Shown one piece after another: positions 29,527-46,394 of a DNA stretch of 54,443 bases. The position numbers and the translations under genes are program-made. The notes beneath the pieces are model-generated. The model was not told the origin of the DNA and did not search any database. It was given only the letters and a program-made list of their open reading frames with translations. This DNA is from a virus (lineage: Duplodnaviria > Heunggongvirae > Uroviricota > Caudoviricetes), in the IMG/VR virus record IMGVR_UViG_2579778982_000031. The stretch is one strand, 5' to 3'. The first letter of the stretch is position 1. Each line of letters starts with the position of its first letter.

Positions 29527-30101
29527 GCAGCCCTCACAATGTAATTAAATGAAATATTACGTGGGCGTGTCTCTGCTGCACCGACAATACTGGTGCTCAA
29601 CCCCGTTGCCGTTCGTTTGTTATTTTTATTTCCTTCAATCAGACAGTTGTAATCATCATTACCAATTAACGAATTGGTGGCATCAATACTGTCCGGGGAC
29701 AAGGCATTAGTAGTGGAACTTAAAGTCAGCATCTCGTCTGAACTTGGAAGATTTTTTAATGGTGTTTCATTGCGTGAAATACCCGCGTAAAAAAAGGACT
29801 CATGCCTGTGAGCTTCAAAAGAGTCATCCTGAAGACTTAGCAAGGCTCGCCCCGCATCCACTCCACGTCCATCATCCCAGCCACGAATAAATTCACCGCG
29901 TAAATCAGGCAATTTATTGGTCGGGTAAGCCTTTGCCAGTTCCGGGTATTCTTCAGCAGAAAAAGCCGCACCATTGCATTTCAGCCAGCCTGTTGGCGGA
30001 GTGGCTGAAGGCCACGGAACAGGCACCCCAACCGGTAATGCAGAGCCTTCTCCCAAACCAACGTTTATGAAAATGCAGAAATAACGAGCAAATGGCATCA
30101 T
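29523..30101 (-). CDS. Alternative tail fibre C-terminal segment (silent in this orientation)
   Basis: Contains GWLKCNGAAFSAEEYPELAKAY...LPDLRGEFIRGWDDGRG, typical of Mu S/P2 H-type receptor-binding C-termini; 5' end crosses the right crossover repeat. Confidence 0.65.
   Translation of the reverse strand: MMPFARYFCIFINVGLGEGSALPVGVPVPWPSATPPTGWLKCNGAAFSAEEYPELAKAYPTNKLPDLRGEFIRGWDDGRGVDAGRALLSLQDDSFEAHRHESFFYAGISRNETPLKNLPSSDEMLTLSSTTNALSPDSIDATNSLIGNDDYNCLIEGNKNNKRTATGLSTSIVGAAETRPRNISFNYIVRAA
30046..30064. repeat. Right crossover site of the invertible tail-fibre segment
   Basis: Reverse complement of the 28150-28168 repeat (≥15 bp identical), just upstream of the invertase gene. Confidence 0.6.
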
Positions 30102-30127
30102 TCCTGCTTTTGTCAGGGAGATCTACC

Positions 30128-30682
30128 ATGCTTATTGGCTATGTACGTGTGTCAACAAATGACCAGAACACAGATCTACAACGTAATGCGCTGAACTGTG
30201 CAGGATGCGAGCTGATTTTTGAAGACAAGGTAAGCGGTACAAAGTCCGAAAGGCCGGGACTGAAAAAACTGCTCAGGACATTATCGGCAGGTGACACTCT
30301 GGTTGTCTGGAAGCTGGATCGGCTGGGACGTAGTATGCGGCATCTGGTCATTCTGGTTGAGGAGTTGCGCGAACGTGGCGTTAATTTTCGCAGCCTGACG
30401 GATGCTATTGATACCAGCACACCGATGGGGCGTTTTTTCTTTCATGTGATGGGTGCCCTGGCTGAAATGGAACGAGAACTGATTGTTGAACGAACAAAAG
30501 CTGGACTGGAAGCTGCTCGCGCACAGGGACGAATTGGTGGACGTCGTCCCAAACTTACACCAGAACAATGGGCGCAGGCCGGGCGATTAATTGCATCAGG
30601 CGTTCCTCGCCAGAAGGTGGCTATTATCTATGATGTTGGTGTGTCAACTTTGTATAAGAGGTTTCCAGCCAGGGTTATATAA
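30128..30682 (+). CDS. pin: Serine DNA invertase (Pin/Gin/Hin family)
   Basis: MLIGYVRVSTNDQNTDLQRNAL...VVWKLDRLGRSM...; catalytic Ser in the VRVST motif and C-terminal HTH; close from memory to e14 Pin. Confidence 0.9.
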   Translation: MLIGYVRVSTNDQNTDLQRNALNCAGCELIFEDKVSGTKSERPGLKKLLRTLSAGDTLVVWKLDRLGRSMRHLVILVEELRERGVNFRSLTDAIDTSTPMGRFFFHVMGALAEMERELIVERTKAGLEAARAQGRIGGRRPKLTPEQWAQAGRLIASGVPRQKVAIIYDVGVSTLYKRFPARVI

Positions 30683-31024
30683 AACCGCAGACATGTCGTA
30701 TGCAGGAGGTGTCGCGGTTGGCTGGTGAACTTTTGATAGTGCGAGTATTGAATGATTTCCAGCCGTTACTGATTTTACGCATTTTTGTATGAGAGGGTTT
30801 GCACCTCCTTCCACCGATTCTCCATGACTTTACGCCACTGTCTCTAGAACTGCTATGTGCCAACAGCAGACATTCATAGCACACAGTTTTGTTAACAACT
30901 AGAAATAAGTTTAGGAATAGTCGCGATATATCTATTAAAGATACAATCATTCAAATAAATGAGACATTTTCGGCATGCTGGGAAAAGTAATTAAAAATGG
31001 TGAAAGCCAATTATTTTTTATTAA

Positions 31025-31531
31025 TCAACTTTTAAACCATAAGTCATCTCGATAGAGTAGACTAATTTTCGTTGCATCTTTTGATGCTAGAGTCGTACAC
31101 TCTCCTTTATCAAACTCATCTAGACTCACAAATGTAAATTCGTCACCATTTTTTTCTTTCGGAAACACCATAAAGACTACTTCGAAAGTACAATCACTAT
31201 ACACATTTTTTAAGAATTGCTGAAGTGCTCTATACTTTCCTATTTCACAATCAGTAAGTGTAAAGGAGGTACACCCATCTGTTGAGTGATACTTCGCATC
31301 TAAAAGAATATAAGAGGATTCGTCAGCGTCAATAATGAAATCGGGGCGTTTCCCCCCATATGATTTCAAGTTTGCAGATAAAGTATTTATTCCTTGCTCA
31401 ACATGTTCAAATTTCCACTTGGATTTTTCCAGCCATCTACTAGCATATTTCTCACCATCTTGACCAGCCGTTATAGAGTATTGTTTTCTTAATGCGCTGC
31501 ACATTTCGTCTAAATTTAACATAAATTCCAT
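31025..31531 (-). CDS. Hypothetical protein with PD-(D/E)xK nuclease-like motif
   Basis: AT-rich ORF; putative motif ...E...RPDFIIDADESSYILLDAKY (PD...D-A-K spacing). ATG chosen at MEFML. Motif assignment is by eye only. Confidence 0.4.
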   Translation of the reverse strand: MEFMLNLDEMCSALRKQYSITAGQDGEKYASRWLEKSKWKFEHVEQGINTLSANLKSYGGKRPDFIIDADESSYILLDAKYHSTDGCTSFTLTDCEIGKYRALQQFLKNVYSDCTFEVVFMVFPKEKNGDEFTFVSLDEFDKGECTTLASKDATKISLLYRDDLWFKS

Positions 31532-31799
31532 GTTCCTTTTTTTTAGTATAATTATTAACATCGGCAGTATTTAATAATTCTTTAAAAATAAATTTTCAGG
31601 CTCATACCAATTATATCTTCAAGCATTATTATCAAGCATATTCGAGACCTCTGCAATTCGCTCACAGCGGATCTCGCCTAGCGAGCAGGTCTGCTCAGTG
31701 CCATAATTAGTCTCATCAGCAGACTATAGTTGTGCTCAATCGGAGACATGTGGCAAACATGAGGAACATTATGTCCGTCAAAGAGTTTTCGTAGCTTAG

Positions 31800-32015
31800 G
31801 CATTTCGATGCTGGCAACGGGTCAGTGTAACGCTTACTATATCGGTCCACTTTAGTCTTAAGGGTTCAATATGGCGTTGCACCTATTGTCCGCTGACCAA
31901 GAATCTTCGGGTGATTCAACTTCTGTTGGGTCATAAGAAACTGGAAAGCACATTCCGTTATCTGGGCATTGAAGTCGATGATGCGTTAGAGATCTCTGAA
32001 TCGATTGAAGTCTAA
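31800..32015 (+). pseudogene. Tyrosine-recombinase (lambda Int-like) C-terminal remnant
   Basis: Frame ending at TAA 32013-32015 encodes ...VIQLLLGHKKLESTFRYLGIEVDD..., matching the LLGHK-x6-RY catalytic-Tyr box of lambda-type integrases; in-frame stop at 31797 and no N-terminal domain. Confidence 0.35.
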
Positions 32016-32121
32016 GGTTGTCAGGGCTGCAACAGCAGCCCTGTGCCAGGAGCAGACGTTAACGACCAAGCATTGGCGGCAATTGAGCTCAGCGCAATTG
32101 CCGTTCAAGTGCAACTCCGTT

Positions 32122-34875
32122 CTATTTGATTGCTGCATTGATTCGTTTATATCTTTGGGTAAAGGCCTCTTTGCCACCTTCCATCACTCGGCATATCTCA
32201 TCGCGTATGGAAGGTTCTTGAAGACCCCCTTGCGCCACAATTCTGGTTTGACCAGACCGAATATCAAGGGCAATGACGTTTTCCGCGTCACCATTCACGA
32301 CGATGTTAGCGTTGTGCGTGACTACTAAAACCTGCCGTTTTTGTTTGATCTCACGCAATTGCGTCACGATAAGATCATAGATTAAGTGGTTATCAAGATC
32401 ATCCTCAGGCTGATCAAGTATAAGAGGCTCATTGCCATATGAAAGGATAAATGCAAGGAGAGCCGCCGTTTTTTGCCCCGGAGATCCTTGCTCTACGGGT
32501 TTGAAACTCTCGCCGTTCTTGAGGCTATATCTGATATCCAGAGAATCGCCTGGAAACCAGCACTGAATTCGATCTATCTGTTCCGGAGTTAGCCCCTGAA
32601 TGAGGGATACAAAACGTCGATCTTTGCAGGATTCCACCGCCATAGTATCGTTTTCATGGATTGCAAGTAGCGATGATTTTATTTTCTCAATTTTATCATC
32701 CATAGTATTGGATTGGTCTTGCGTTAAATAAGCCAGCAAGCCCTCATCCCCGTCAACAACTCCAATGTCGCGGTCAAATCCGCCACCACTGCGGCCGATC
32801 AGGTTACGGAATTCTTCCTCAACCGTAATCTTGTTTCCAAACGGAATGACATTGATCTGTACATATGAATTGCCGACGAGAGTATCCTTGAGAAAGTCCT
32901 CACGAAGTTTGGTTATCAATGCTCGATGCTCATGGAGTTTGACCAAGTATTCTTCCGCGCTCTTCTGATGCTGCGCAAGAGTTTCTCTCTTTTTGTCGAA
33001 TCCCTTGAGCTTATCTTCGAAATCTTGTCGCTGCTTAACCAGAACACCATATGCAGATGGATCACCTGCGTCTGCTGCGCTGAGTTGACCGAGGAGGGCG
33101 TTGTATTCATGGCTCGCCGCTGTAATTCTTTTCGATATTCCCAAGTCTGATCGAGTTTGATTCCATGAGTTCTTCACATCATCAATCCGCTGCGCGATCG
33201 AGTTCATCTCTGTCTGAAGCTTCTCAAACGTCGCACGGATGTCCTTGATGGTATCGAAGAGTTCTTTGTCATCCGCATTCCCAATGTCGAAATATTGTAA
33301 ATCCAATTCTGCTGGCAGTAGGCTTCCAGAAATATCTCGGACCTGTTCGGCGGAATCCTCCCAAGTCGTTACCCAGGAGTCCATAGCCTTACTCTGGTTC
33401 TGTCTGAGTTGGTAAGCCTTAAGGACATCCGCGTGGCCCGCCTTTTCAAAAACATCGAGTTTGCGTTTGACGTCTTCAAGCTGACCTTTGGTTACCGATT
33501 CTTCCTGAAGCCCAGCCTGAACTTCACGCTCTTGGGCGCGAAGCGAGAGATATTTGGAAACCAGTTCATCCCACTTAAGCTGCCAATCACGATGATTGAC
33601 CTCCGGGGCATCATCGACAACCTGCAAGAGTGCTTGGGGATGCTTTGCCAATTCGAATATCTGTTTCTGGCTGTAAATCCTGACAGGAAATCGTTGTGCT
33701 ATGTCTCCCTCGGAATCACACCAGACTCCGGGAGCGGTCTCTTCCTCGATGCTGTATATGTCGTCGGTATTAGACCAGGTGATTCGGAAACGGCCACCGT
33801 CTTTTCGAAAGCCTACAGTTATTTTCGTGGAATCTTTTAACAGCCCTTCATCTTGGCGGTCTTTCGAAGTTTGACTGTATTTGGTAAATTCCTTTTCAAG
33901 GCTCTTGGGGATTTCTCCCTTTCGTTTAAGAGCAATCCGCAGGAATTCCAACGAAGTCGATTTCCCAGTGCCTCGTCCACCAATGATAGTGTTGAGCCAG
34001 GGGTTCAGTTGACAAGTTAAAGATTGCCCTCGTCCTAAGTACTTCGCATCATCAACCACGATACTTTCGATGGCAAGTTGTCCATGGATATTTGGGTCAC
34101 CAGTGAAGTTGTCCGACCGCTTCAGTGAAAGAGCCCCATCAACGAGCGCCAGCCGTAATCCGTCATAAGATGGCTCCGACATTTTTACCCAAGTGAAATG
34201 GCTACCCGGGTAGCGTTGATTTCCGGTACCGGACGGATGATGGGAATCGGTTCCAAGAATCTCTGCCCAATTCAAATTCTTGCCAATATAGAGCTGCGGT
34301 TTTGCTTTAGCAAGGTCCGTTACCTCCATAGCAAAAACACATTTGTTGTCAAGCACCTGCTCTAGTGTGTTGCCCGTACAGACCGTAAAAAGTCCGCTAG
34401 CCTGATCTACATGAGCAGGTATTGCAAGTCCTCCTGACCTAGCAATTTCGTCGATCACCTCAACTGCTGAGCATTCAGAGCAGCCGTCGCTCTTTCCTTT
34501 GGTGCCGCGATACCTGACCGCACCAAGCAGTGAGTCGATATCAGAGGTTGTCTTGTCTTCGCCGAAAATGGCCAGAATATGGATATTCCCCTGAACAGTA
34601 AGCTCAACACCTGGGAATAAGTAGAGTGGTCGATAATCTTCATGACTCTCAGATGCCAGTTCCTTGAGTGCCTGCTTGAGCGGATCAATCCAAGCGCCTG
34701 AATTATGGTCCGTGACAGCGACACAATCGATGCCTTGTCGCATGTAGTTGAGCAGCCAATCTTTATGAGTGATCTGCATATACTGGGCCTGATTAGGGCC
34801 TTTTCCATAATCGTCCGATGCCGGAGTGTGATTATGGAAGTCGAATTTCCACCACCGAGAACCAATCCAGTTCAT
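32122..34875 (-). CDS. PHP-domain phosphoesterase fused to SMC/ABC-like ATPase (Ppl-like candidate anti-phage protein)
   Basis: N-terminal PHP motifs (FDFHNHTPASDDYG, AVTDHNS, IPAHVD); Walker A GGRGTGKSTSLEFL; long coiled-coil region; Walker B/D-loop LILDQPEDDLD and H-loop VVTHNANIV. 917 aa. Confidence 0.6.
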   Translation of the reverse strand: MNWIGSRWWKFDFHNHTPASDDYGKGPNQAQYMQITHKDWLLNYMRQGIDCVAVTDHNSGAWIDPLKQALKELASESHEDYRPLYLFPGVELTVQGNIHILAIFGEDKTTSDIDSLLGAVRYRGTKGKSDGCSECSAVEVIDEIARSGGLAIPAHVDQASGLFTVCTGNTLEQVLDNKCVFAMEVTDLAKAKPQLYIGKNLNWAEILGTDSHHPSGTGNQRYPGSHFTWVKMSEPSYDGLRLALVDGALSLKRSDNFTGDPNIHGQLAIESIVVDDAKYLGRGQSLTCQLNPWLNTIIGGRGTGKSTSLEFLRIALKRKGEIPKSLEKEFTKYSQTSKDRQDEGLLKDSTKITVGFRKDGGRFRITWSNTDDIYSIEEETAPGVWCDSEGDIAQRFPVRIYSQKQIFELAKHPQALLQVVDDAPEVNHRDWQLKWDELVSKYLSLRAQEREVQAGLQEESVTKGQLEDVKRKLDVFEKAGHADVLKAYQLRQNQSKAMDSWVTTWEDSAEQVRDISGSLLPAELDLQYFDIGNADDKELFDTIKDIRATFEKLQTEMNSIAQRIDDVKNSWNQTRSDLGISKRITAASHEYNALLGQLSAADAGDPSAYGVLVKQRQDFEDKLKGFDKKRETLAQHQKSAEEYLVKLHEHRALITKLREDFLKDTLVGNSYVQINVIPFGNKITVEEEFRNLIGRSGGGFDRDIGVVDGDEGLLAYLTQDQSNTMDDKIEKIKSSLLAIHENDTMAVESCKDRRFVSLIQGLTPEQIDRIQCWFPGDSLDIRYSLKNGESFKPVEQGSPGQKTAALLAFILSYGNEPLILDQPEDDLDNHLIYDLIVTQLREIKQKRQVLVVTHNANIVVNGDAENVIALDIRSGQTRIVAQGGLQEPSIRDEICRVMEGGKEAFTQRYKRINAAIK

Positions 34876-35237
34876 TTGTACCGTTCCTATTCTTTTTATT
34901 AGTGCGTCTGCGCGAGGTCGCTAACTTTGCAAACTAGATTACCTTGTAAGGTTGGAAAGTCCAACGTCCGCTGTTCGTCATAGCAGACATTCACTACAGT
35001 TATGGCAGAAAGGTATGCATGTTGAGGTGGGAAAGTCGTGAAAGAAAAGAAAACTGCTGCGCTGTTTGTCGTCACGTTTATCTTCATTGGCTATGCAAGT
35101 CATAATACAAGGTGGGACAAAACTGAGACACATAAGGCCTCACAATGGCTTGCAAGGCTTTACATGTTTTGATGTGGTGGGACGTGTGAGCGCAGTGTTG
35201 ATGGGGTAATGCTTTGAATTAGAAGCGGATTCTTATA

Positions 35238-35283
35238 ATTCGTAATGCGAAGGTCGTAGGTTCGACTCCTATTATCGGCACCA
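35238..35283 (+). tRNA. 3' fragment of tRNA-Thr(CGU) (thrW-like), candidate att site; not an intact tRNA
   Basis: ATTCGTAATGCGAAGGTCGTAGGTTCGACTCCTATTATCGGCACCA matches the anticodon-loop-to-CCA half of enterobacterial tRNA-Thr(CGU) as recalled; the 5' half is absent upstream. Confidence 0.6.
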
Positions 35284-35300
35284 TTCAAACATCTCCCCAA

Positions 35301-35385
35301 GTCTACTAAAGTCTTTCAAAACCCCTTATAATCCGCGTATTAAAGCCCCGTTCGTCTTTTGACGTCTACTAAAGTCCCTCAAAAT
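35301..35385. repeat. Two ~22-bp direct repeats between the att fragment and the integrase gene
   Basis: GTCTACTAAAGTCTTTCAAAAC (35301-35322) and GTCTACTAAAGTCCCTCAAAAT (35364-35385), 20 of 22 identical; candidate integrase arm-type sites or operator repeats. Confidence 0.4.
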
Positions 35386-35448
35386 CTACGGTCAGATGGG
35401 GGTACTTATGGGGGTATTTGCTGTTCGGTTTAGTGGAGGTACCCCCAA

Positions 35449-36663
35449 GTGAAACTCAATGCCCGTCAAATAGACACAGCCAAGCCAAAAGAGAAGGCTT
35501 ACAAGCTGACCGATGGTGGCGGTTTGTATCTCTTGGTAAAACCTAATGGAGGTAAATACTGGCGACTTAAATATCGTGTAGCTGGTAAAGAGAAGCTATT
35601 GGCACTAGGTGTGTATCCTGAGGTTACTCTAGCCGATGCTCGGGCAAAACGTGAAGATGCGAAAAGAGGTATCGCTGGTGGTATCGATCCGATGGAAGCG
35701 AAACGAGAGGAAAAGATTGCCCGGGAAACGCAGTTAAACAACACCTTCAAAGATATTGCCCTTGAGTGGCACAGCAGCAAATTAAAAAAATGGTCTGATG
35801 GTTATGCTTCAGACATCCTCGAAGCCTTCAACAAAGATGTGTTCCCTTACATTGGCAAAAAACCCATCGCCGAAATCAAACCACTTGAACTTCTGAATGT
35901 GCTGCGTCGCATCGAGGGGCGCGGTGCTACAGAAAAAGCCAAAAAAGTGAGGCAACGGTGCGGGGAAGTTTTCCGCTATGCAATAGTCACTGGTCGCGCA
36001 GAGTATAACCCTGCACCAGACCTTACTAGCGCGATGCAAGGCCATGAATCTAATCATTACCCTTTCCTTACAGCCAAAGAATTACCTGATTTTTTCAAGG
36101 CATTGTCCAGTTACTCAGGAAGCGCATTGGTTGTTATGGCGGCTCGTCTACTGATTATCACCGGCTTGCGGACTGGCGAACTACGTGGCGCATTATGGGA
36201 TGAAATTGATTTCAACAAGGCTATCTGGGAGATACCCGCTTCACGTATGAAAATGCGGCGGCCTCATATTGTGCCATTGTCTGAGCAGGCTCTTTCGCTT
36301 ATTGGGAAGATTAGAGAAATAACAGGCAATTACCCTCTTATGTTTCCCGGGCGCAATGATCCAAGGAAAACAATGAGCGAGGCCAGCATAAACCAAGTGT
36401 TTAAGCGCATTGGCTACGCTGGACGTGTAACTGGTCATGGGTTCCGGCACACTATGAGTACGATTTTGCATGAGCAGGGCTATAACACCGCGTGGATAGA
36501 AACGCAGCTCGCTCACGTTGATAAGAACTCAATTCGTGGCACATACAACCATGCGCAATATCTGGATGGAAGGCGGGAGATGCTTCAATGGTATGCCGAC
36601 TATATGGATTCTCTCGAGCATGGCGGAAATGTGGTGCATATGGTGTTTGAAAAACACGCATGA
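35449..36663 (+). CDS. int: Tyrosine integrase, P4-like
   Basis: N-terminal DUF4102-type arm-binding region (LTDGGGLYLLVKPNGGKYWRLKYR); catalytic box GHGFRHT...; next to a tRNA 3' fragment; GTG start after GGAGGT. Confidence 0.85.
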   Translation: MKLNARQIDTAKPKEKAYKLTDGGGLYLLVKPNGGKYWRLKYRVAGKEKLLALGVYPEVTLADARAKREDAKRGIAGGIDPMEAKREEKIARETQLNNTFKDIALEWHSSKLKKWSDGYASDILEAFNKDVFPYIGKKPIAEIKPLELLNVLRRIEGRGATEKAKKVRQRCGEVFRYAIVTGRAEYNPAPDLTSAMQGHESNHYPFLTAKELPDFFKALSSYSGSALVVMAARLLIITGLRTGELRGALWDEIDFNKAIWEIPASRMKMRRPHIVPLSEQALSLIGKIREITGNYPLMFPGRNDPRKTMSEASINQVFKRIGYAGRVTGHGFRHTMSTILHEQGYNTAWIETQLAHVDKNSIRGTYNHAQYLDGRREMLQWYADYMDSLEHGGNVVHMVFEKHA

Positions 36664-37054
36664 AACAACTGGACAAGTATACAGAGGTTTACTAAAGTAT
36701 AGGGGAGTAGATTGATAAAAACTCACAGAGGATTGCTATTTAACAGTTAGCCCTGGAGAAGGGCAATCGCTCTTTTATAAACGAAGGTGTATTGAGCCTT
36801 CTACGTCGCTGACAAAGCGGAATGTTCTTTAAAACTACTGGATGTCACGCCTAATAGCGTGATCCTGCCGAAATGCAGGGTAGCTCTACCCTTGTGGAGC
36901 AAACAAACCAAAACAATCTGACTATCTTTTATAAAAGACCGCAATATGTTTTTCATATTGTGGTCTTTGGCGTATTCGACATTTGACGCAAATAAAACTC
37001 TCGCCATTCGTTGCAGGAGGGGGTTATTGCGTCATTAGTACAGGATATTAATAA

Positions 37055-37258
37055 ATGGCTAATTACAATTCATTAATTCGTCTCTCTGAAGTTCAAAGGC
37101 GAACTGGTTATAGCAAAGCATGGATTTATCGTCTTATTAGTCAGGGGAGGTTCCCTAAACAGGTAAAAATTGGAAGTCGGGCAATTGCTTTTGTTGAGTC
37201 TGAAATAGATGAATGGATTGAGAAGTGTATATTAGAATCTAGAGACGAGGTGGCCTGA
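37055..37258 (+). CDS. alpA: AlpA-family transcriptional regulator / excisionase-like
   Basis: 67 aa; LSEVQRRTGYSKAWIYRLISQGRFPKQVKIGSRAIAFVESEIDEWI is a typical AlpA/Vis HTH. Confidence 0.75.
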   Translation: MANYNSLIRLSEVQRRTGYSKAWIYRLISQGRFPKQVKIGSRAIAFVESEIDEWIEKCILESRDEVA

Positions 37259-37689
37259 TGGAAAAGAAAAACCGCCCATTACAGGCGGCTAATTCAGATA
37301 TTCGTGTATCTGATGTTACGCCCCTTACAAAATCCCTTCAAGCACCAAAGCGTACACCGAAAAAGCATCGTGCCAGAGTCTATATGCTGCGTACTGGTAT
37401 AGAGGGATGGACAGAAAATGACATTCTTCGCTACTGCCGTCTGTCTTCTGGTCGTAACTATGCAACAGAGTTAGAACGCCAGCTTGGAATCACTCTGGAG
37501 CGTATCGACGAAAAGAATCCTGATGGTATCGGAACACACCTTCGCTACCGTTTCTCCTGCCGTGGTGATGTTCTGAAAGTGATCACTCATATTAACCATC
37601 TTGCGAACATAAATGATCACAACGGACTTTCTCAGCAGGAAATTGCCGACATTCTGAAACTCTACCCGGACGCGTTTAACGCCGCCTAA
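37258..37689 (+). CDS. Hypothetical protein
   Basis: 143-aa ORF, ATGA-coupled to alpA. Confidence 0.4.
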   Translation: MEKKNRPLQAANSDIRVSDVTPLTKSLQAPKRTPKKHRARVYMLRTGIEGWTENDILRYCRLSSGRNYATELERQLGITLERIDEKNPDGIGTHLRYRFSCRGDVLKVITHINHLANINDHNGLSQQEIADILKLYPDAFNAA

Positions 37690-37701
37690 CGGAGACTGAA
37701 A

Positions 37702-38535
37702 ATGAACATCGAAAAAAGCAGATTAATTTCTGAGGCTGCCCCTCATCTGAACGCCTCTCTGGGCACAATTAACGGTAATGAATTTGCCGCAATTGTCCCG
37801 GTTATTCCTGGTCATATCGGTGGGCGTGAAACCAATATTGTTAGCGCAAAAGCGTTACACAAAGCGTTGGGCGTGGGAAAAGACTTCTCTACATGGATCA
37901 CTGATCGCATCTCTGAATATGACTTCACCATTGGGCACGATTACTCAGTCCATAAAACAATTTCCCCAAATTTGGGGAAAAGCCCGAATGGCGCGGCTTA
38001 CAGCAAGATTAAGCAGTCTGGCAGACCCGGCAAAGACTATCTGTTAAGTGTCGGAATGGCGAAAGAACTGGCAATGATCGAACGCAATGATCAGGGTCGC
38101 GCTATCCGTCGTTATTTCATCCAGTGCGAGGAAGAATTACAGCGTAGCGTGCCTGAAATCGCCGCCCGCTATCGTCGCCAGCTAAAAGCCCGTATTAGTG
38201 CCGCAAACAACTTTAAGCCAATGTGCGATGCGCTGAATATGGCCCGTGCCGAGCAGGGGAAAACGACGCAGCAACACCACTACACAAACGAGAGCAATAT
38301 GATTTCTCGTATCGTTCTTGGTGGGCTAACTGCTAAGCAGTGGGCGCGGATAAATGGCTATTCTGGCGAACCTCGCGACCATATGAACGCAGAACAGCTT
38401 GAGCACCTCTCATATCTCGAAAGCACCAATATCACGTTAATTGATATGGGCATGGAATATGAGCAGCGCAAAGGAGAACTCACCCGCCTGTCGCAACGCT
38501 GGCTCGCCAAGCGTCTGGAGGCGGTCCATGTTTAA
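37702..38535 (+). CDS. Phage antirepressor-like protein (AntA/KilAC-like)
   Basis: N-terminal region resembles AntA-type antirepressor domains (NGNEFAAIVPVIPGHIGG...VSAKALHKALGV); assignment tentative. Confidence 0.45.
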   Translation: MNIEKSRLISEAAPHLNASLGTINGNEFAAIVPVIPGHIGGRETNIVSAKALHKALGVGKDFSTWITDRISEYDFTIGHDYSVHKTISPNLGKSPNGAAYSKIKQSGRPGKDYLLSVGMAKELAMIERNDQGRAIRRYFIQCEEELQRSVPEIAARYRRQLKARISAANNFKPMCDALNMARAEQGKTTQQHHYTNESNMISRIVLGGLTAKQWARINGYSGEPRDHMNAEQLEHLSYLESTNITLIDMGMEYEQRKGELTRLSQRWLAKRLEAVHV

Positions 38536-38703
38536 GCCGACAGGAACACCACAACCCCAAAAACGCTACAAAGATGCCCACGGAGCACTCGTTACTGTCG
38601 AAAGCGTGTCTCACAACCGAGTGACGTTTTATCGCGACGGGTATCAATCGCCATGCGTACAACTGCTGGCGCGCTTCATGAAGGAGTTCGCGGAGGTTAA
38701 CAA

Positions 38704-39771
38704 ATGCTAACCGTCCAGAAGAAGATATTTTCACTGGCTGGTATGTCGCCAAAATCCAGCAATATGACAGCAAAGTCTGGCATTAATACAGCATATACAA
38801 GCAAAGTTTATCATTTTCTGGTGGTAGGAGCGGATGCCTTAACTATGTCAGAAATTACGGTCGATGGTGTTAGCGTTGAGAAGGTCGGCGGCTGCGCCAG
38901 AGAATTTCTGGTCGTAGATGGCTTTCTCTGCTCGCGTAGTGACTCCACAAAAACCTTCGTCCACACGCGCGACGTTAACGAAATGAGCGCGATGTATTGT
39001 GCATCTGGTGCTTCCAATAGTGAGTTTTCGGAGTCCATAAAAAAGAGCTTGCCGTTATGCGGCAACACGGTTTATGGTTATAAGGCACCTCATAAAACGG
39101 GTGCCGGGATTGGCGTCCTGAAAATTCTGAAGGCGACATATGACGCGCCGAGCGTCTTTTTTTATGTCGTAGGTCTGACTCACCCATTTTTTGGGCGTTG
39201 GTGTATAATCCAGCGCCTTTGTCAATCAATGGTGGCTCAGGCGGGGGCTTCTTCGGAAGCGCCGGTATCCTTCAGAGCCGGTTACGCCAACCCTGTCTGG
39301 GCTACCACCAGCGAAATTGGCGTTTCCGGTGGTAGCGTAACCTGCTATCTGAAGGAGGCTGCCACATGCTGGCTACTACCCCTACCCAAAAACCGCAATT
39401 TATCTGGATTATCGCCGCAGTTCGCCGCGATTGCCCGACAATTACCGCCAAAATTCATCATATTGCTGCCGAGTCTGAACGCGATGCTCGCCGTTCTCTG
39501 GTGCGCGATCACGTCTGCTTTTTTGCTGGTCGTATCCGCATGGAGGTGGCACATGATTAAAACCTACGATGTGCATATGGATCCCCTCGAACGCACAAGC
39601 CAGATCATCACACTGACAGAAGTGATTAACGACATTCTGGTGAGCAACTCTCCCTCACGAGACGAAAGACTGAAGGCGTTACTCGCGATATTGGATCTCG
39701 CCGTTCGTGACGTTCATTTCCTGCTGGAAGGTGGCGAAATGCCAGGAAAAACGGGGGCAACCAATGAATAA
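38704..39771 (+). CDS. Hypothetical protein; gene structure ambiguous
   Basis: 355-aa ORF whose middle looks non-protein-like; a 64-aa ORF (39366-39560, RBS AGGAGG) in another frame and a 72-aa in-frame C-terminal ORF from 39553 (RBS GGAGGT) may be the real genes. Confidence 0.3.
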
Positions 39772-39958
39772 CTCAATTAATGCCCCTCGACTTACGTCCG
39801 CACTTCAATTAATCGAGCAAGCAGCGGCTGTCCTGGTTGCTGTCAGTCTTTCGGCTGAAGAAATGGACGCTGCTGATGTCGTGGATGCGATTAAAGCGTG
39901 CTCATCTTTGGTTAACGATGCCCGTGCAGAGCTGGTAATTCTTGGGGGTGAAAAATGA
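39764..39958 (+). CDS. Hypothetical small protein
   Basis: 64-aa ORF from an internal ATG; part of a run of coupled small genes. Confidence 0.35.
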   Translation: MNNSINAPRLTSALQLIEQAAAVLVAVSLSAEEMDAADVVDAIKACSSLVNDARAELVILGGEK

Positions 39959-40218
39959 ATATCAACTTAATTTATCGTCATCCGTGTGAGCTGGAAATTG
40001 AATCATTGCTGGGGCGTGAAGAGCCATATCCAGACACATTCACTCCCGCAGATTGCGCGACTGAACGGCTTACCAGAGCGCGCACAGGTCTGGTTCATGT
40101 GATGAATGAGATTATTCCCTCGGTGGGAGGGGAACAGGCGACAGTAATCAATAGCTGGCTACAAAAAGTTACCTCCCTGATAGATATCAGTTTAATCGAT
40201 GTGGAGAGTGCGAAATGA
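39955..40218 (+). CDS. Hypothetical small protein
   Basis: 87-aa ORF, ATGA-coupled. Confidence 0.4.
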   Translation: MNINLIYRHPCELEIESLLGREEPYPDTFTPADCATERLTRARTGLVHVMNEIIPSVGGEQATVINSWLQKVTSLIDISLIDVESAK

Positions 40219-40436
40219 CCAACATCCAGCTCATTGAAGCGCAATGTCGCATCGAACAGGTTCAGACTGTTTTAGGGTTCTGGCTTGAAGGGGCCAGCCC
40301 CAGCAACAGAGACAAGTTAATGATTGGCGCGGTTATGTCACTGCTCAATGGCGTACCAGAAGCTATTCAGGAAGCAGACGAATTGTTGGGCAAATATGAG
40401 TTACAGAATCATTCAGGCGAGGCGAAACATGAATAA
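40215..40436 (+). CDS. Hypothetical small protein
   Basis: 73-aa ORF, ATGA-coupled. Confidence 0.4.
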   Translation: MTNIQLIEAQCRIEQVQTVLGFWLEGASPSNRDKLMIGAVMSLLNGVPEAIQEADELLGKYELQNHSGEAKHE

Positions 40437-41031
40437 TTTCTTAACCTTCCATGCAGAAGCAACGCCTGACGGCGTAAACATCATGTACCGCAGCAACGAT
40501 GGCATGACAGAACGCGTTGAGGCCGTTTCATATATTGATGCCGTAAATCGTCTGGATGCCGGGGATTATGACGATAAACCAGATGAAGGTATGTCAATAC
40601 ATCTTGCTATTGCCGATGGCGGCAACCAGGGATATTTCGATTACACATCACAGCATAACGTCATTATGTGGAGATGGCTGATCGCAACAGTATTCATGCT
40701 GGAAATGAGAGAGGAAAACGGCACTGTCAGCATCATTGATGATACTGGCAATCCTTCCGAAGTGGCTGTTTATTCCAACGGCATCGTCGCCATGCCGCTG
40801 TATCCAGTAGCAGAGCGCCTCGCTATGGCAAACAACATTGAGGGCGCGATGATAGAACGTTTTGGCATCGAGTCTGGCACAGAACGCGCCATCATTTTCT
40901 ACAGAGCCATGATGGATGTGGAACAAGGAGCACTGACTCCATTTGGTCGTGAAACGCTTGCTGAACTTCACAACAGCTTTATAGCTGAACTGAATGAAAA
41001 CGGCATGCCAGCGGAACCAGTGACGCACTGA
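40429..41031 (+). CDS. Hypothetical protein
   Basis: 200 aa from the ATG at 40429, overlapping the previous stop. Confidence 0.45.
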   Translation: MNNFLTFHAEATPDGVNIMYRSNDGMTERVEAVSYIDAVNRLDAGDYDDKPDEGMSIHLAIADGGNQGYFDYTSQHNVIMWRWLIATVFMLEMREENGTVSIIDDTGNPSEVAVYSNGIVAMPLYPVAERLAMANNIEGAMIERFGIESGTERAIIFYRAMMDVEQGALTPFGRETLAELHNSFIAELNENGMPAEPVTH

Positions 41032-41041
41032 GGATGGAGCC

Positions 41042-41383
41042 ATGATTACTAAAAATTTCCGACTGAATGCGCTGGCAAATAAGTATGCGTCGGCACTGTA
41101 TAACCACATTACCTCCACCAGCGGCGGGGACTATTTCATGGTTCATGCGGACGACAAGGCCGTACGTGTGGAAATCGTCAATGGAGTAAAAGGCGTTCGC
41201 AGCCTGATCGATAGCTACACACTGGCTGCCATGAAAGTGTTCTACCCGCAGTGGGAAACCGTGGGGATCGAGCTTCTTGATCGTTGCGTCACTAAGGACG
41301 GATTGACTGACGTCGGGCGTGAGATATGGCAAAGCATGGTTAATGACATGGGCGCAACTGTAGCGGGAGGTTCTCATGCGTGA
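41042..41383 (+). CDS. Hypothetical protein
   Basis: 113-aa ORF in the small-gene operon before the primase. Confidence 0.45.
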   Translation: MITKNFRLNALANKYASALYNHITSTSGGDYFMVHADDKAVRVEIVNGVKGVRSLIDSYTLAAMKVFYPQWETVGIELLDRCVTKDGLTDVGREIWQSMVNDMGATVAGGSHA

Positions 41384-41747
41384 AAATGCAGAAATGGCGC
41401 TTAGCTCCGCAATCGGAGAGCAGGTGGCAAAGATTGCTGGTGCTGTGTGGATTCATAACCTTCATTCTACTGGTGAAGAGAAAATGGCAATTCAGACGCC
41501 AGAGGGACGCACCATTACTACATCTCTGAAGCCGTCAGATGTTTGTGATCTGATTTGCGCATTCATGTACCCAGCAATGAGGACTGTCCACGGCGATAAG
41601 TGGAAACTTGCGACAACCGCTGAATTTGATATGTGGCTAAACAATGATGGCATGCTGACTGATTACGGAATAACCAAGTGGCAGATGCTGGTTAGCCATA
41701 TCGCAAACGCTATAGACCACGTGGGGTACGGTGATGCGAAACATTGA
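41376..41747 (+). CDS. Hypothetical protein
   Basis: 123-aa ORF overlapping the primase start. Confidence 0.45.
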   Translation: MRENAEMALSSAIGEQVAKIAGAVWIHNLHSTGEEKMAIQTPEGRTITTSLKPSDVCDLICAFMYPAMRTVHGDKWKLATTAEFDMWLNNDGMLTDYGITKWQMLVSHIANAIDHVGYGDAKH

Positions 41748-44490
41748 TCTTATCCGTCAGGTTATCAGTGCGTCTGAAAACAACTGGCCTCATGTGCTGG
41801 GCTGCCTGAACATAAATGTCCCTGACTCTCCGCGCCGTCATGCTCCCTGCCCTGCATGTGGGGGCAAAGATCGATTCCGGTTCGATGACAACGGGCGCGG
41901 TAGCTTCATCTGTAATCAGTGCGGCGCTGGTGATGGGCTGGATTTAATTAAACGCGTAAATAACTGCGACACAACAGAGGCGGCGCTTCTTGCCGCTGAT
42001 GTTCTGGGTATTGATTACCGGACAACGGAAACACCAGAAGCCACCAGCCAGAAACGGGAACAACTGGAAACCGAGCGCCAGCGACGCGAACAGGAGCGCC
42101 TGAAAAGGGCAGAGAAGGACGAACAACAAAGACGGGATACGTTTTCCCGTCAGTTTGATGACATGCGCAGAAAGGCTGTAAACGGCAAATCTGATTATCT
42201 GGTTGCGAAAGGGGTAGGTGATTTTACATTCCCCGTGTTGCCCGATGGATCTCTGTTGCTGGCGCTGGTGGATAAATCCGGCGCAGTCACAGCAGCACAG
42301 ACTATTACCTCACATGGTGAAAAAAGACTCCTGACAGGTTCAGCAAAGCGGGGGGCATATCACGCCATAAACGCACCAGAAACAACACAGAGCATCTTAA
42401 TCGCAGAAGGGCTGGCAACGGCATTATCTGCCCATTTAATTCGTCCAGAGGCGCTGACAGTGGCGGCGATTGATGCCGGGAACCTGTTATATGTCGCCCA
42501 GGTACTGCGGGATAAATATCCATCAGCACAAATCATCATTGCTGCGGATAACGACCACAGCGAAGGAAGACAAAACACGGGGAGAATAGCAGCAGAAAAA
42601 GCAGCTTTATCTGTTTCTGGATGGGTGGCATTACCCCCGACAGATCACAAAGCAGACTGGAATGATTACCACCAAAAACACGGCATTAAATGCGCCACAG
42701 AAGCGTTCAATAAGTCAATGTACCAACCACAGGGTAATGGCGTGAAACAGGAGCCACAGACCATTGAGGGAAGCGATTTTAAGGTTATGGATACCGACCC
42801 ACTGAAACCAAGAATAGAAAGCCGCGAGGATGGTATTTATTGGGTATCTCCGAGAGCTGACAGCCAGAGTGGAGAAATCATCAATAACGAAAGCTGGTTA
42901 TGTTCTCCGTTAAGCGTTATCGGTACTGGCAGAGACGATAAAGACCAGTATCTCATTCTTCGCTGGCTGTCGTTTGGTTCTGAAACGCCGACAACCGCTG
43001 CCATTCCACTGGCTGATATTGGTGAACGTGAAGGATGGCGCACACTTAAAGCTGGTGGGGTAAATGTCACGACCAAAAGCAGCCTCAGAGCAATACTGGC
43101 AGACTGGCTACAACGCAGTGGCTCTCGTGAATTGTGGCGTGTTGCTCATGCCACTGGCTGGCAATGCGGAGCGTACATCATGCCTGATGGGGAAATCATC
43201 GGAACACCTGAAAATCCTGTGCTGTTCAGCGGGAGAAGCTCAGCCGCAGCCGGATATACCGTCTCAGGGAGCGCGAAAAGCTGGCGTGATAACGTGGCGC
43301 GTCTGGCCTTTGGTAACTATTCAATGATGACCGGGATCGGCGCAGCACTGGCAGCGCCATTGATTGGGCTGGTGGGCGCTGACGGGTTCGGCATTCATTT
43401 CTATGAGCAGTCGAGCGCAGGTAAGACCACCACGGCAAACGTGGCGAGCAGCTTATACGGCAACCCTGATTTACTGCGGCTGACGTGGTACGGAACCGCG
43501 CTGGGGCTGGCAAATGAAGCCGCCGCCCACAATGACGGACTAATGCCGCTTGATGAAGTTGGTCAGGGCGCTGATCCTGTCAGTGTTTCACAGTCTGCCT
43601 ATGCGTTATTTAACGGTGTAGGGAAACTGCAAGGCGCTAAAGATGGTGGAAACCGGGATCTAAAACGCTGGCGTACAGTGGCAATCAGCACTGGAGAAAT
43701 GGATTTAGAAACATTTATCGCTACTTCCGGGCGAAAAACCAAAGCCGGGCAACTGGTGCGACTGCTGAATATTCCGTTGAGTAAAGCAGTACGCTTTCAC
43801 GATTACCAGAACGGAAAACAGCACGCAGACGCACTGAAAGACGCTTACCAGCATCACCACGGCGCAGCCGGGCGTGAGTGGATTAAATGGCTGGCAGACC
43901 ACCAGCAACAGGCAATTAAAACTGTTCGTGACTGCGAAAGCAGATGGAGAAGTCTGATCCCATCCGATTATGGTGAGCAGGTTCACCGTGTAGCCGCGCG
44001 ATTTGCCATTCTGGAGGCCGCATTGCTGTTAGGCGAGGTTGTAACAGGCTGGGATGCTCAGACATGCCGTGATGCGATACAGCACAGCTATAACGCATGG
44101 TTGCGCGAGTTCGGCACAGGTAACAAAGAACATCAGCAGATTATTGAACAAACGGAGGCATTTCTTAATGCCTATGGGCTTAGCCGTTTTGCACCATTTC
44201 CATACAGCCCGGCAGATTTGCCCATCAAAGATTTGGCCGGATACCGTCAGCGTGGAGAACATGACGAAAGCCCAATGATTTTCTACACATTCCCGGCCAC
44301 ATTTGAAAAGGAGATCGCATGTGGTTTCAACGCAAAACAGTTTGCTGAAGTGTTGAAAAAAGCCGGGATGCTAACCCCACCAAACAGCGGTCGTGGATAC
44401 CAAAGAAAATCACCACGTATTCAGGGACGACAAATAAACGTTTATGTACTCAATTACCAGCCAGGAGATTATAACTCATCTGAAGAATGA
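41734..44490 (+). CDS. Primase-helicase (P4 alpha-like; zinc ribbon + TOPRIM + P-loop NTPase)
   Basis: Zinc ribbon CPACGG...CNQCG; TOPRIM-like ILIAEGLATA and AADNDH; Walker A GIHFYEQSSAGKTTTAN; followed directly by an iteron array. Confidence 0.8.
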   Translation: MRNIDLIRQVISASENNWPHVLGCLNINVPDSPRRHAPCPACGGKDRFRFDDNGRGSFICNQCGAGDGLDLIKRVNNCDTTEAALLAADVLGIDYRTTETPEATSQKREQLETERQRREQERLKRAEKDEQQRRDTFSRQFDDMRRKAVNGKSDYLVAKGVGDFTFPVLPDGSLLLALVDKSGAVTAAQTITSHGEKRLLTGSAKRGAYHAINAPETTQSILIAEGLATALSAHLIRPEALTVAAIDAGNLLYVAQVLRDKYPSAQIIIAADNDHSEGRQNTGRIAAEKAALSVSGWVALPPTDHKADWNDYHQKHGIKCATEAFNKSMYQPQGNGVKQEPQTIEGSDFKVMDTDPLKPRIESREDGIYWVSPRADSQSGEIINNESWLCSPLSVIGTGRDDKDQYLILRWLSFGSETPTTAAIPLADIGEREGWRTLKAGGVNVTTKSSLRAILADWLQRSGSRELWRVAHATGWQCGAYIMPDGEIIGTPENPVLFSGRSSAAAGYTVSGSAKSWRDNVARLAFGNYSMMTGIGAALAAPLIGLVGADGFGIHFYEQSSAGKTTTANVASSLYGNPDLLRLTWYGTALGLANEAAAHNDGLMPLDEVGQGADPVSVSQSAYALFNGVGKLQGAKDGGNRDLKRWRTVAISTGEMDLETFIATSGRKTKAGQLVRLLNIPLSKAVRFHDYQNGKQHADALKDAYQHHHGAAGREWIKWLADHQQQAIKTVRDCESRWRSLIPSDYGEQVHRVAARFAILEAALLLGEVVTGWDAQTCRDAIQHSYNAWLREFGTGNKEHQQIIEQTEAFLNAYGLSRFAPFPYSPADLPIKDLAGYRQRGEHDESPMIFYTFPATFEKEIACGFNAKQFAEVLKKAGMLTPPNSGRGYQRKSPRIQGRQINVYVLNYQPGDYNSSEE

Positions 44491-44513
44491 GCTTCTTCAT
44501 GTGCGTAGAAAAG

Positions 44514-44640
44514 GTGTTGGTTCAGTTGGTTCAGTTGGTTCAGTTGGTTCAATTTGTAAAGAGTATTGTTTTATAAGGATTTTATTCTTTTTATTGAACC
44601 AACACTGAACCAACAACACGGTATTTTGAACCAACACAAT
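44514..44640. repeat. Iteron array, candidate replication origin of the satellite-like element
   Basis: Four tandem GTTGGTTCA, an AT-rich spacer, then three inverted TGAACCAAC copies; immediately downstream of the primase-helicase. Confidence 0.6.
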
Positions 44641-44955
44641 GTGACTGAATTGATGCGCACAACACCTGGCTGGCATCAGAGAGTGTTTTACGAGACTTTC
44701 GTAAAATCCTGTGTACAAGGGCGTGACGTTTTTGAAAGTGAGCACTACGAAATTTTCGTAGTTCAAAAAACAGCCTCTGAGAAGTTGTTATGCCTGTTCA
44801 GCAAACCATCCGCATAGCTGATCGCGAATCAAATTACCAATGGAGCCAGAAGCAAGGGCAGAACTGAAAAGTGCCTGCCGTGAAGAGTAATGCGACACCA
44901 TAAATATAGTTTTTAGAGTCCATAAAAAACCAGTCAAAACCTGACACACAGAACG

Positions 44956-44988
44956 ATGCCACCAGCTACTGAGCGGTGGCATTTTTTT
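44956..44988 (+). terminator. Rho-independent terminator
   Basis: 8-bp stem ATGCCACC/GGTGGCAT with ~10-nt loop followed by TTTTTTT. Confidence 0.5.
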
Positions 44989-45083
44989 GTGCTATTTGTT
45001 TCATATTTTGCAATTACGATGATGAATATTGCGATTTATGAAACTATAATAACTGTTGTTTTATACAGTTCTAAGGGGGCGTT

Positions 45084-45245
45084 ATGGCTATTTCAGTAAA
45101 GCCGGTATTGATAAGTGAGAAGCAAATGGAAGCGATAAAGAAAATTCAGGAAGAGCAGCGTAAAAAATCAGGAATTGGAGTAGCGCCAACTCTGCATGAA
45201 ATTGCTCGAGGGTTAATAGATAAGGCGCTGGCAGGCTGTATGTGA
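45084..45245 (+). CDS. Small putative DNA-binding protein
   Basis: 53-aa ORF not in the supplied track; AAGGGGG RBS 5 nt before the ATG; lysine-rich helical composition. Speculative. Confidence 0.3.
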   Translation: MAISVKPVLISEKQMEAIKKIQEEQRKKSGIGVAPTLHEIARGLIDKALAGCM

Positions 45246-45261
45246 AAATGGATGGCATCGC

Positions 45262-45723
45262 ATGGAACTAAAATTTATTGATAACCCTGTGCGATTACAG
45301 GCCTTTCTTAACGATCCTGGCAATACCGAAAATATTGTTGAGCCGGGGCACACGTACTACATCAAGCCTGATGCGGTATATCTCGGCATCTACGAAGGAT
45401 TGGTGCTGGCTGGCGTTCATGAAGTGCGTAACTTCTGGCATAGCGTTGTTGAATGCCATGCGGTGTATGACCCCGGATTCCGTGGTGAATATGCACTGCA
45501 AGGGCATCGACTATTCTGCAAATGGCTTCTCGAAAACTCACCATTCCTTAACAGCATCACTATGGTTCCTGACACCACGAAATACGGACGGGCAATTATC
45601 CGTTTGCTTGGCGCTACCCGTGTTGGTCACCTTGATGATGCTTATATCAGATGTGGTAAACCCGTCGGCGTAACGCTTTATCAGTTAACTCGGCAACAAT
45701 ATAAGGAATTCAGCGAATGTTAA
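45262..45723 (+). CDS. Hypothetical protein (first gene of cargo cassette)
   Basis: 153 aa, start overlapped by the next gene; no motif recognised. Confidence 0.45.
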   Translation: MELKFIDNPVRLQAFLNDPGNTENIVEPGHTYYIKPDAVYLGIYEGLVLAGVHEVRNFWHSVVECHAVYDPGFRGEYALQGHRLFCKWLLENSPFLNSITMVPDTTKYGRAIIRLLGATRVGHLDDAYIRCGKPVGVTLYQLTRQQYKEFSEC

Positions 45724-46394
45724 TTACCCATATAGCTCATAAACATCTCAATCGTGCCGTATACGAAAAAGGCGGTGATGGTGGTGCCTCTAAAGCTCAG
45801 GCGAAGGCCCAGCAGCAGGCAATTGATTTGCAGCGCGAGCAGTGGAATACGGTGATGAATAATCTCAAGCCGTATGCAGAAGTCGGATTGCCTGCTTTAC
45901 AACAACTACAAGGACTGATGACTCTGGAAGGGCAGAATAAAGCCGCGAATGATTTCTTTGGTTCTGGTTTATATAAAACACAGGCAGATCAGGCCCGTTA
46001 TCAGAACCTTGTCTCAGCAGAAGCTACCGGGGGGCTTGGCTCAACAGCTACCAGTAACCAGTTATCTTCCATTGCGCCCATGCTTTATAACAATTGGCTT
46101 AGTGGGCAAATGCAAAATTATGGAAACCTGCTAAATGTCGGGATGAATGCGGCATCAGGGCAGGCAACGGCAGGGCAAAACTACGCCAATAATACCGGAC
46201 AACTCTTGCAGGGGCTTGGCGCTATTCGTGCAGGTCAGGCGCAGCAGCCATCCAGTCTTGCGCGTGGTATTGGTGGGGCAGCATCAGGCGCTTTAGCGGG
46301 TGCGCAACTTGGTTCCGTTGTTCCTGGAATAGGTACTGCGGCAGGCGCTATTGGTGGTGGGCTTATTGGTCTTGTTGGGGGGCTTGGATTCTAA
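45717..46394 (+). CDS. Hypothetical Gly/Ala/Gln-rich protein with hydrophobic glycine-zipper C-terminus
   Basis: 225 aa; C-terminal GIGTAAGAIGGGLIGLVGGLGF; coupled to flanking genes. Confidence 0.45.
   Translation: MLITHIAHKHLNRAVYEKGGDGGASKAQAKAQQQAIDLQREQWNTVMNNLKPYAEVGLPALQQLQGLMTLEGQNKAANDFFGSGLYKTQADQARYQNLVSAEATGGLGSTATSNQLSSIAPMLYNNWLSGQMQNYGNLLNVGMNAASGQATAGQNYANNTGQLLQGLGAIRAGQAQQPSSLARGIGGAASGALAGAQLGSVVPGIGTAAGAIGGGLIGLVGGLGF

Follow-up and report, generated by a model that had tools for sequence, protein, structure and literature searches.

The gene ppl was reportedly named by Gao et al. in 2020. In Escherichia coli, Ppl is a single-gene 3'-5' single-stranded DNA exonuclease that is inhibited by nucleoside triphosphates (NTPs) through both its PHP and its NTPase domains, and phage-driven depletion of nucleotides, combined with 3'-OH ends that phage homing endonucleases produce, activates it (2026 review, PMC12904381, from which we take the Ppl mechanism throughout). 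A phage counter-defence gene or protein acting against ppl has been reported (PMC11482910), and Ppl is not mentioned in Rousset et al. 2022. Examples of variable anti-phage cargo held at one set position of a prophage, with conserved phage sequence on either side, are the mcrA locus of e14 and the defence hotspots of P2 and P4 (PMC9122126). Here we describe a locus resembling these at positions 31025-34875 of a 54,443-nucleotide (nt) stretch of Caudoviricetes DNA (IMG/VR record IMGVR_UViG_2579778982_000031), called the window below. Two minus-strand genes at this locus encode a 917-residue protein of the Ppl/TrlF family and a small candidate nuclease. Unlike the e14, P2 and P4 sites, the locus holds a Ppl/TrlF homologue and a small nuclease in two slots split by a recombinase remnant, and its e14-like prophage is integrated at thrW rather than icd.

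Taken as a whole, the best explanation, which we consider likely, is that this region forms the cargo-bearing end of an E. coli prophage that resembles e14 and is integrated at thrW, with two variable slots and three conserved anchors. Under this explanation the locus is a typical, two-slot prophage defence hotspot. Its contents are one Ppl/TrlF member, already named in RefSeq, and one small-nuclease candidate. The list of open reading frames (ORFs) places both genes where a preliminary description, made from the sequence alone, had put them (917 codons at 32122-34875 and 178 codons at 31025-31561), and all of the motifs given in that description (GRGTGKST, LILDQPEDDLD, VVTHNANIV and a PD...DAK type) were found. 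The low GC content that it had attributed to both genes applies to the small gene, at 35.7%, but hardly to the large one, at 47.5% against 50% for the window.

Family, domains and distribution of the 917-residue protein

Judged by its sequence, the 917-residue ORF is intact and belongs over its full length to the Ppl/TrlF family, and the name Ppl is valid for it in the broad PADLOC sense. The PADLOC Ppl model (PDLC02208) matches residues 4-912 through profile positions 3-892 of 894 (E 2.3e-157, 523.7 bits), and the NCBIfam TrlF model (NF045780) scores 651.4 bits (E 4e-195) against a curated cutoff of 350. A RefSeq protein that is 100% identical, found on 310 contigs, bears the name 'TrlF family AAA-like ATPase'. 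Identity is ~30% over 99% of the length to ppl genes annotated by PGAP and 38% to another TrlF clade (tblastn, plasmids). The protein is like Ppl in its length class, in the colinear order of PHP domain, Walker A lobe, coiled coil and lobe with signature, Walker B and H-loop, in the conservation of all catalytic residues, and in its occurrence as a single gene on mobile elements beside other defence genes.

The domain identity of the protein is clear. Invariance of residues was defined by a three-way alignment of the 917-residue protein with an annotated Ppl and a relative from the other TrlF clade, and this alignment was colinear. The PHP metal ligands H14, H16, D56, H57, E91, H99, H155, D210 and H212 are invariant, as are the ATPase residues of Walker A (G299-T307), the Q-loop (Q403), the signature (S798, G800, Q801), Walker B (D821, E824, D825) and the H-loop (H854); the three ATPase motifs of the preliminary description lie at residues 300-307, 818-828 and 851-859. 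Profile searches recovered the ATPase through Pfam AAA_21 (29.9 bits, gathering cutoff 27). The PHP domain was recovered by the NCBIfam CehA/McbA PHP-type metallohydrolase model (2.2e-12 over residues 7-250) and by RNase RNM (7e-4), but Pfam PF02811 had no match at E<=1. Since the Pfam PHP model is silent, the PHP assignment rests on NCBIfam, on the conserved ligands, on a match of the family profile to the PHP phosphoesterase 9etk in the Protein Data Bank (PDB; E 0.0026, all motifs aligned), and on the label 'PHP domain-containing protein' given by PGAP to a frameshifted N-terminal piece in strain UPEC_U013. A phmmer search of PDB sequences returned an ABC-F match only and nothing useful.

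The long coiled coil of the preliminary description was borne out by AlphaFold2 (AF2), which predicts long helices over ~240 residues (428-665) with confidence (pLDDT about 85-90). There is no invariant Cys within residues 428-665, and the coiled coil therefore lacks a zinc hook. A Foldseek search with the AF2 model returned JetC, MukB, SMC and Rad50, all with TM below 0.25; these matches are weak and only consistent with the assignment. The chain begins with a PHP domain, expected to be a metal-dependent nuclease, and continues as an ABC ATPase of Rad50/SMC type, with the coiled coil standing between its two lobes. The likeness to SbcCD/Mre11-Rad50 noted earlier stands as an analogy only: both have a nuclease and an ABC ATPase with lobes separated by a long antiparallel coiled coil, and there are weak SbcC/SMC/Rad50 profile and fold matches. 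In contrast to SbcCD, the nuclease is a PHP and not a calcineurin-like Mre11/SbcD domain, both activities are in one chain, and the short coiled coil carries no CxxC zinc hook.

The whole islet is present in 13 of 5426 complete E. coli genomes and the large gene alone in a few more, bringing the gene to ~17/5426. Homologues that are 83-98% identical at the protein level each stand alone in defence-rich settings. On a Klebsiella-type plasmid the homologue adjoins a type II restriction-modification (R-M) system, and in Dethiosulfovibrio (Synergistota) it is inside a type I R-M operon between hsdM and hsdS, with stop/start overlaps of 4 nt (locus L018:4496-9971). The Sphaerochaeta homologue directly follows pglX in a BREX operon (L019:3173-8763), and that of Proteus is terminal in a lambdoid prophage integrated at icd. 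Neighbouring genes differ in the five contexts examined, pointing to a single-gene organization. The settings beside hsdM/hsdS and pglX resemble the arrangement of PrrC within EcoprrI; the embedding of the gene in R-M and BREX operons hints that it is a guard or backup of the surrounding system.

Nucleotide identity to the window gene is ~82% over 2.7 kb in Dethiosulfovibrio (L018:6001-8772), Sphaerochaeta (L019:6001-8763) and Proteus (L021:6001-8754). Across these phyla the GC content of the gene remains at 43-49%, whereas that of its flanks ranges from 35% to 57%. This high identity, together with a steady GC content amid variable flanks, indicates recent and wide horizontal spread of the gene between phyla. 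In UPEC_U013, one of the 13 islet genomes, a frameshift splits the gene (L002:7423-10176) into a 712-residue ATPase ORF and the 202-residue PHP piece mentioned above, and the gene is therefore decaying in that lineage.

By homology to E. coli Ppl, the 917-residue protein would most likely be a nucleotide-gated DNA exonuclease. Binding of NTPs would hold the protein off; once a phage depletes the nucleotides and free 3'-OH DNA ends are present, it would turn on and degrade phage DNA. Several results weigh against so close a reading. The match to Ppl proposed in the preliminary description holds along the full length in PADLOC but falls below the NCBIfam Ppl equivalog (NF042955), with 631.3 bits against a curated cutoff of 1000; at ~30% identity and below this cutoff, the Ppl mechanism is extrapolated to this clade. 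The silence of PF02811 belongs here too, as does the poor AF2 model of the full-length protein (34-sequence alignment; pLDDT 64.5, pTM 0.42).

These NCBIfam cutoffs, which make the protein a TrlF and not a Ppl, also bear on the alternative that it has a function outside defence, either in growth arrest triggered by stress or temperature or in SbcCD-like DNA repair. The Temperature Restricting Locus (TRL) operon of Photorhabdus causes temperature-dependent growth arrest, and the domain logic of the 917-residue protein parallels that of SbcCD/Mre11-Rad50. The family takes its name from this operon (trlR-trlF-trlG), in which a small regulator and a RecG-like helicase flank trlF; no phenotype has been mapped to trlF (PMC7554251), and this too counts against the Ppl-like reading. 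The TRL phenotype was, however, mapped to TrlG, and while the window protein passes the TrlF family cutoff and has an identical protein of that name in RefSeq, neither trlR nor the RecG-like helicase gene trlG flanks 32122-34875, which is a prophage cargo slot and not a polA-linked operon. The location of close homologues within R-M and BREX operons and at prophage ends, the rarity and horizontal mobility of the gene and the experimentally established anti-phage activity of Ppl relatives also argue against a non-defence function, which we regard as improbable.

The 165-residue nuclease and its cassette

The small gene is listed as an ORF of 178 codons, but homologues and RefSeq start at Met14, making a length of 165 residues likely. 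The protein carries RPDF...LLDAKY, and E37, D74, D88 and K90 are invariant in 34 sequences of 36-87% identity. In its predicted structure (pLDDT 89), these residues are borne by a helix (residues 29-46) and by strands at 75-78 and 83-92. The 165-residue protein is a member of the PD-(D/E)xK superfamily, as it has the core fold with the E/D/(D/E)xK residues placed on the first helix and on the second and third strands. The PD-(D/E)xK assignment of the preliminary description is thus upheld by fold and invariant residues, with only the length revised. No match was found by phmmer among PDB sequences, and larger proteins containing the domain offered no informative fusion partners. Among the 34 family members, 17 weakly match RmuC and six match McrC, with no family profile reaching threshold.

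Like Hjc resolvases and McrC/RmuC domains, the protein has a minimal alpha-beta-beta-beta-alpha-beta core with E...D...(D/E)xK, and its 'PDx13-LDAKY' is as in McrC. It differs from them in identity (9-13%), in extra C-terminal beta-strands, in conserved GGKRPD and FPKE motifs, and in having no McrB-like partner. The protein would be expected to act as a Mg-dependent endonuclease of the PD-(D/E)xK type, its core resembling that of Hjc and its 'PD...DAKY' active site those of McrC and RmuC.

The small gene occurs in 16 of 5426 complete E. coli genomes, and its family (phrog_28481) numbers 240 cluster representatives among 1.84 billion proteins. Homologues were found in an e14-type prophage between integrase and icd, beside a PtuA-like/PDC-M01 pair; in the S/V gap of a P2-like prophage of Rahnella; at the end of a P2-like prophage of Enterobacter, adjoining ogr; at a prophage end in Citrobacter; in the chromosomal integron of Vibrio cholerae; and immediately after Shedu in a mobilizable element. 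In this last, metagenomic element (L029:3398-5821), the 168-residue homologue is third in a same-strand run of Shedu SduA, an unannotated 248-residue gene and the nuclease, spaced by -4 and 8 nt, and the run may be an operon. DNA homology between the window and the Rahnella and Citrobacter prophages is limited to ~790 bp (30866-31671; 80-81% identity over 784-786 bp, blastn, L012 and L014), indicating that the small gene travels alone, in a cassette that includes its flanks.

While the fold and catalytic residues are established, a role in defence is suggested by these locations. The most likely role of the 165-residue protein would be that of an autonomous nuclease attacking invading or replicating phage DNA. 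We tentatively propose that this Hjc/McrC-like family is a new minimal single-gene anti-phage nuclease, whose cassette travels among prophage cargo slots, integrons and defence islands and which discriminates phage DNA by structure or modification with no partner protein. A number of observations count against this proposal. No mechanism for self/non-self discrimination is evident for a lone nuclease, the PADLOC v2 models include no family that matches at E<=1, and none of 50,697 phage records contains a match.

Two further observations count against the proposal and point to a serious, though unlikely, rival, in which the protein has no defence role and is a prophage-borne structure-specific nuclease (a Holliday-junction or fork resolvase) for recombination, repair or phage DNA maturation. 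In structure it is closest to Holliday-junction resolvases, with fold-level likeness to Hjc. In addition, umuD/umuC-like pairs (Peptidase_S24 plus IMS) lie within ~0.5-2 kb of the small nuclease in three of ten contexts (L014, L028, L030), to which a repair role fits equally well; this vicinity could come from common use of a cargo position or from an involvement in processing DNA damage. Identity to the resolvases is nevertheless only 9-13%, the Hjc, RusA and RecU profiles have no match to the protein, and the active-site motif is like that of McrC, RmuC and restriction enzymes. The gene also sits in cargo slots instead of replication or recombination modules, is low in GC, and shows the patchy distribution given above for E. 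coli genomes, phage records and protein clusters, and its 0.8-kb cassette moves among unrelated prophages and an integron. These findings count against the resolvase rival.

A two-slot cargo site at thrW

The features of the site are listed in Table 1. Homology of the window prophage to e14 runs from jayE/ymfQ through pin and stops at the pin stop codon (30682/30683); in e14, mcrA directly follows pinE, 107 bp beyond this point, in agreement with the mcrA position assigned in the preliminary description. An exact 46-nt copy of the thrW 3' end at 35238-35283 places the prophage at thrW and not at icd. thrW is the CP4-6 site of K-12. No whole tRNA was detected in the window (ARAGORN).

Table 1. 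Coordinates of genes, domains and site elements in the window
Feature	Position	Strand	Basis
pin (pinE-type) serine invertase	30128..30682	+	Annotated pinE in identical RefSeq loci; e14 matches at 91.8% identity up to 30683
Anchor A, downstream of pin	30683..30871		90% identity to strain GF3-3 despite different cargo there
Slot-1 cassette, ~0.8 kb (gene + ~150 bp each side)	30866..31671		blastn, Rahnella and Citrobacter prophages
165-residue PD-(D/E)xK nuclease gene	31025..31522	-	Longest ORF 178 residues, up to 31561; likely start Met14
Tyrosine recombinase remnant (last 39 codons + stop)	31896..32015	+	tblastn; inside anchor B, 31896-32060
917-residue Ppl/TrlF-family gene, intact, slot 2	32122..34875	-	ORF list, PADLOC, NCBIfam, RefSeq identity
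ATPase C-lobe, residues ~770-912; ABC signature SPGQK, Walker B LILDQPEDD, H-loop THN	32140..32568	-	Pfam AAA_21; alignment
Long helical coiled-coil insert, residues 428-665	32881..33594	-	AF2; PHROG SbcC-like and Pfam SMC_N matches
ATPase N-lobe, residues ~285-410; Walker A GGRGTGKST, Q-loop Q403	33646..34023	-	Pfam AAA_23, AAA_15; alignment
PHP phosphoesterase domain, residues ~5-260; HxH, DH, E, H, H, DxH metal ligands	34096..34863	-	NCBIfam, alignment, PDB profile
Anchor C, up to prophage/att junction	34963..35289		92.7% identity to GF3-3; matches in 12 other genomes stop at 35289-35293
att repeat, exact copy of thrW (tRNA-Thr) 3' 46 nt; prophage right end	35238..35283	+	blastn, 46/46 to K-12 thrW nt 31-76

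In strain GF3-3 this prophage occupies the same chromosomal site and has three anchors, 30047-30871, 31896-32060 and 34963-35289, in common with the window, with a 208-residue hypothetical gene and a DUF4365 gene as cargo in the two slots. In strain PK8276, the tail-fibre/pin module is followed by a type IV restriction enzyme and retron Ec67. Anchor B, of 165 bp, divides slot 1 from slot 2 and includes the integrase remnant that had been noted between the two genes. This remnant matches residues 162-200 of a 200-residue site-specific integrase at 38/39 positions (tblastn), and its region is found in 774 E. coli genomes at 91-97% nucleotide identity. An origin from the P4-type integrase of the window itself was rejected, as there was no match; the source is a different, 200-residue recombinase. 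Other prophages contain an intact tyrosine recombinase of this (FimB/E) size amid variable hypothetical and DUF4145 genes (L003:6518-7120; L026:2018-2620). The 200-residue recombinase may once have driven cargo exchange at the hotspot.

The cargo genes probably arrived through homologous recombination across the anchors. Slot 1 holds an unrelated single-gene cassette with its own upstream region. Separate acquisition of the two genes, as the preliminary description had suspected, is supported by the two independently variable slots and by the presence of each gene elsewhere without the other. In 13 E. coli genomes the two genes are neighbours with the same orientation, and they could in principle form one two-component system, for example of an ATPase sensor and a nuclease effector. 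These 13 co-occurrences, however, represent one near-identical inherited islet (98.6-100% identity), and a gap of 600 bp with the recombinase remnant on the opposite strand separates the genes. Because each gene occurs without the other in all other contexts examined, and with slots that vary independently, we conclude that they are not one system; a joint system is very improbable. One result counts against the overall explanation: upstream of either gene, no promoter-like site rose above background. Terminator scans, too, remained at background level. No Rfam family was matched in 30000-37500.

Further elements were observed in and beside the site. A perfect 9-bp GC-rich hairpin (32022-32043; CAGGGCTGC-AACA-GCAGCCCTG) separates the recombinase remnant from the 3' end of the large gene; it has no T-run and is therefore off the intrinsic-terminator consensus. 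Homology with the plasmid-borne copy of the large gene starts at 32042, by this hairpin, and takes in the gene and its flanks up to 34991. Directly after the att repeat is a second integrated element of thrW type (35449-50430), with a P4-type integrase, an AlpA-like gene, AntA, Ash and a Toprim/DUF927 primase, which continues with ejection proteins like P22 gp7, gp20 and gp16 and is an odd mosaic of satellite and podovirus. Just upstream of its integrase gene, a 21-nt direct repeat (GTCTACTAAAGTC..TCAAAA) is present at 35301-35321 and 35364-35384 (90% identical, 63 nt apart), and its copies may be integrase arm-binding sites.

Implications for prophage-borne defence

Current thinking is not overturned by this locus, which is a useful but expected case of prophage-borne defence and is largely annotated already. 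The site is a clean example of a two-slot prophage hotspot, in which conserved anchors explain the swapping of cargo. As a candidate for a new nuclease defence made of one gene, the small gene is cheap and well defined. The large gene would extend the Ppl mechanism to a divergent clade (~30% identity) that is spreading between phyla and lies repeatedly inside R-M and BREX operons, and it raises the question of whether defence by a nucleotide-gated PHP exonuclease is general to the whole TrlF family.

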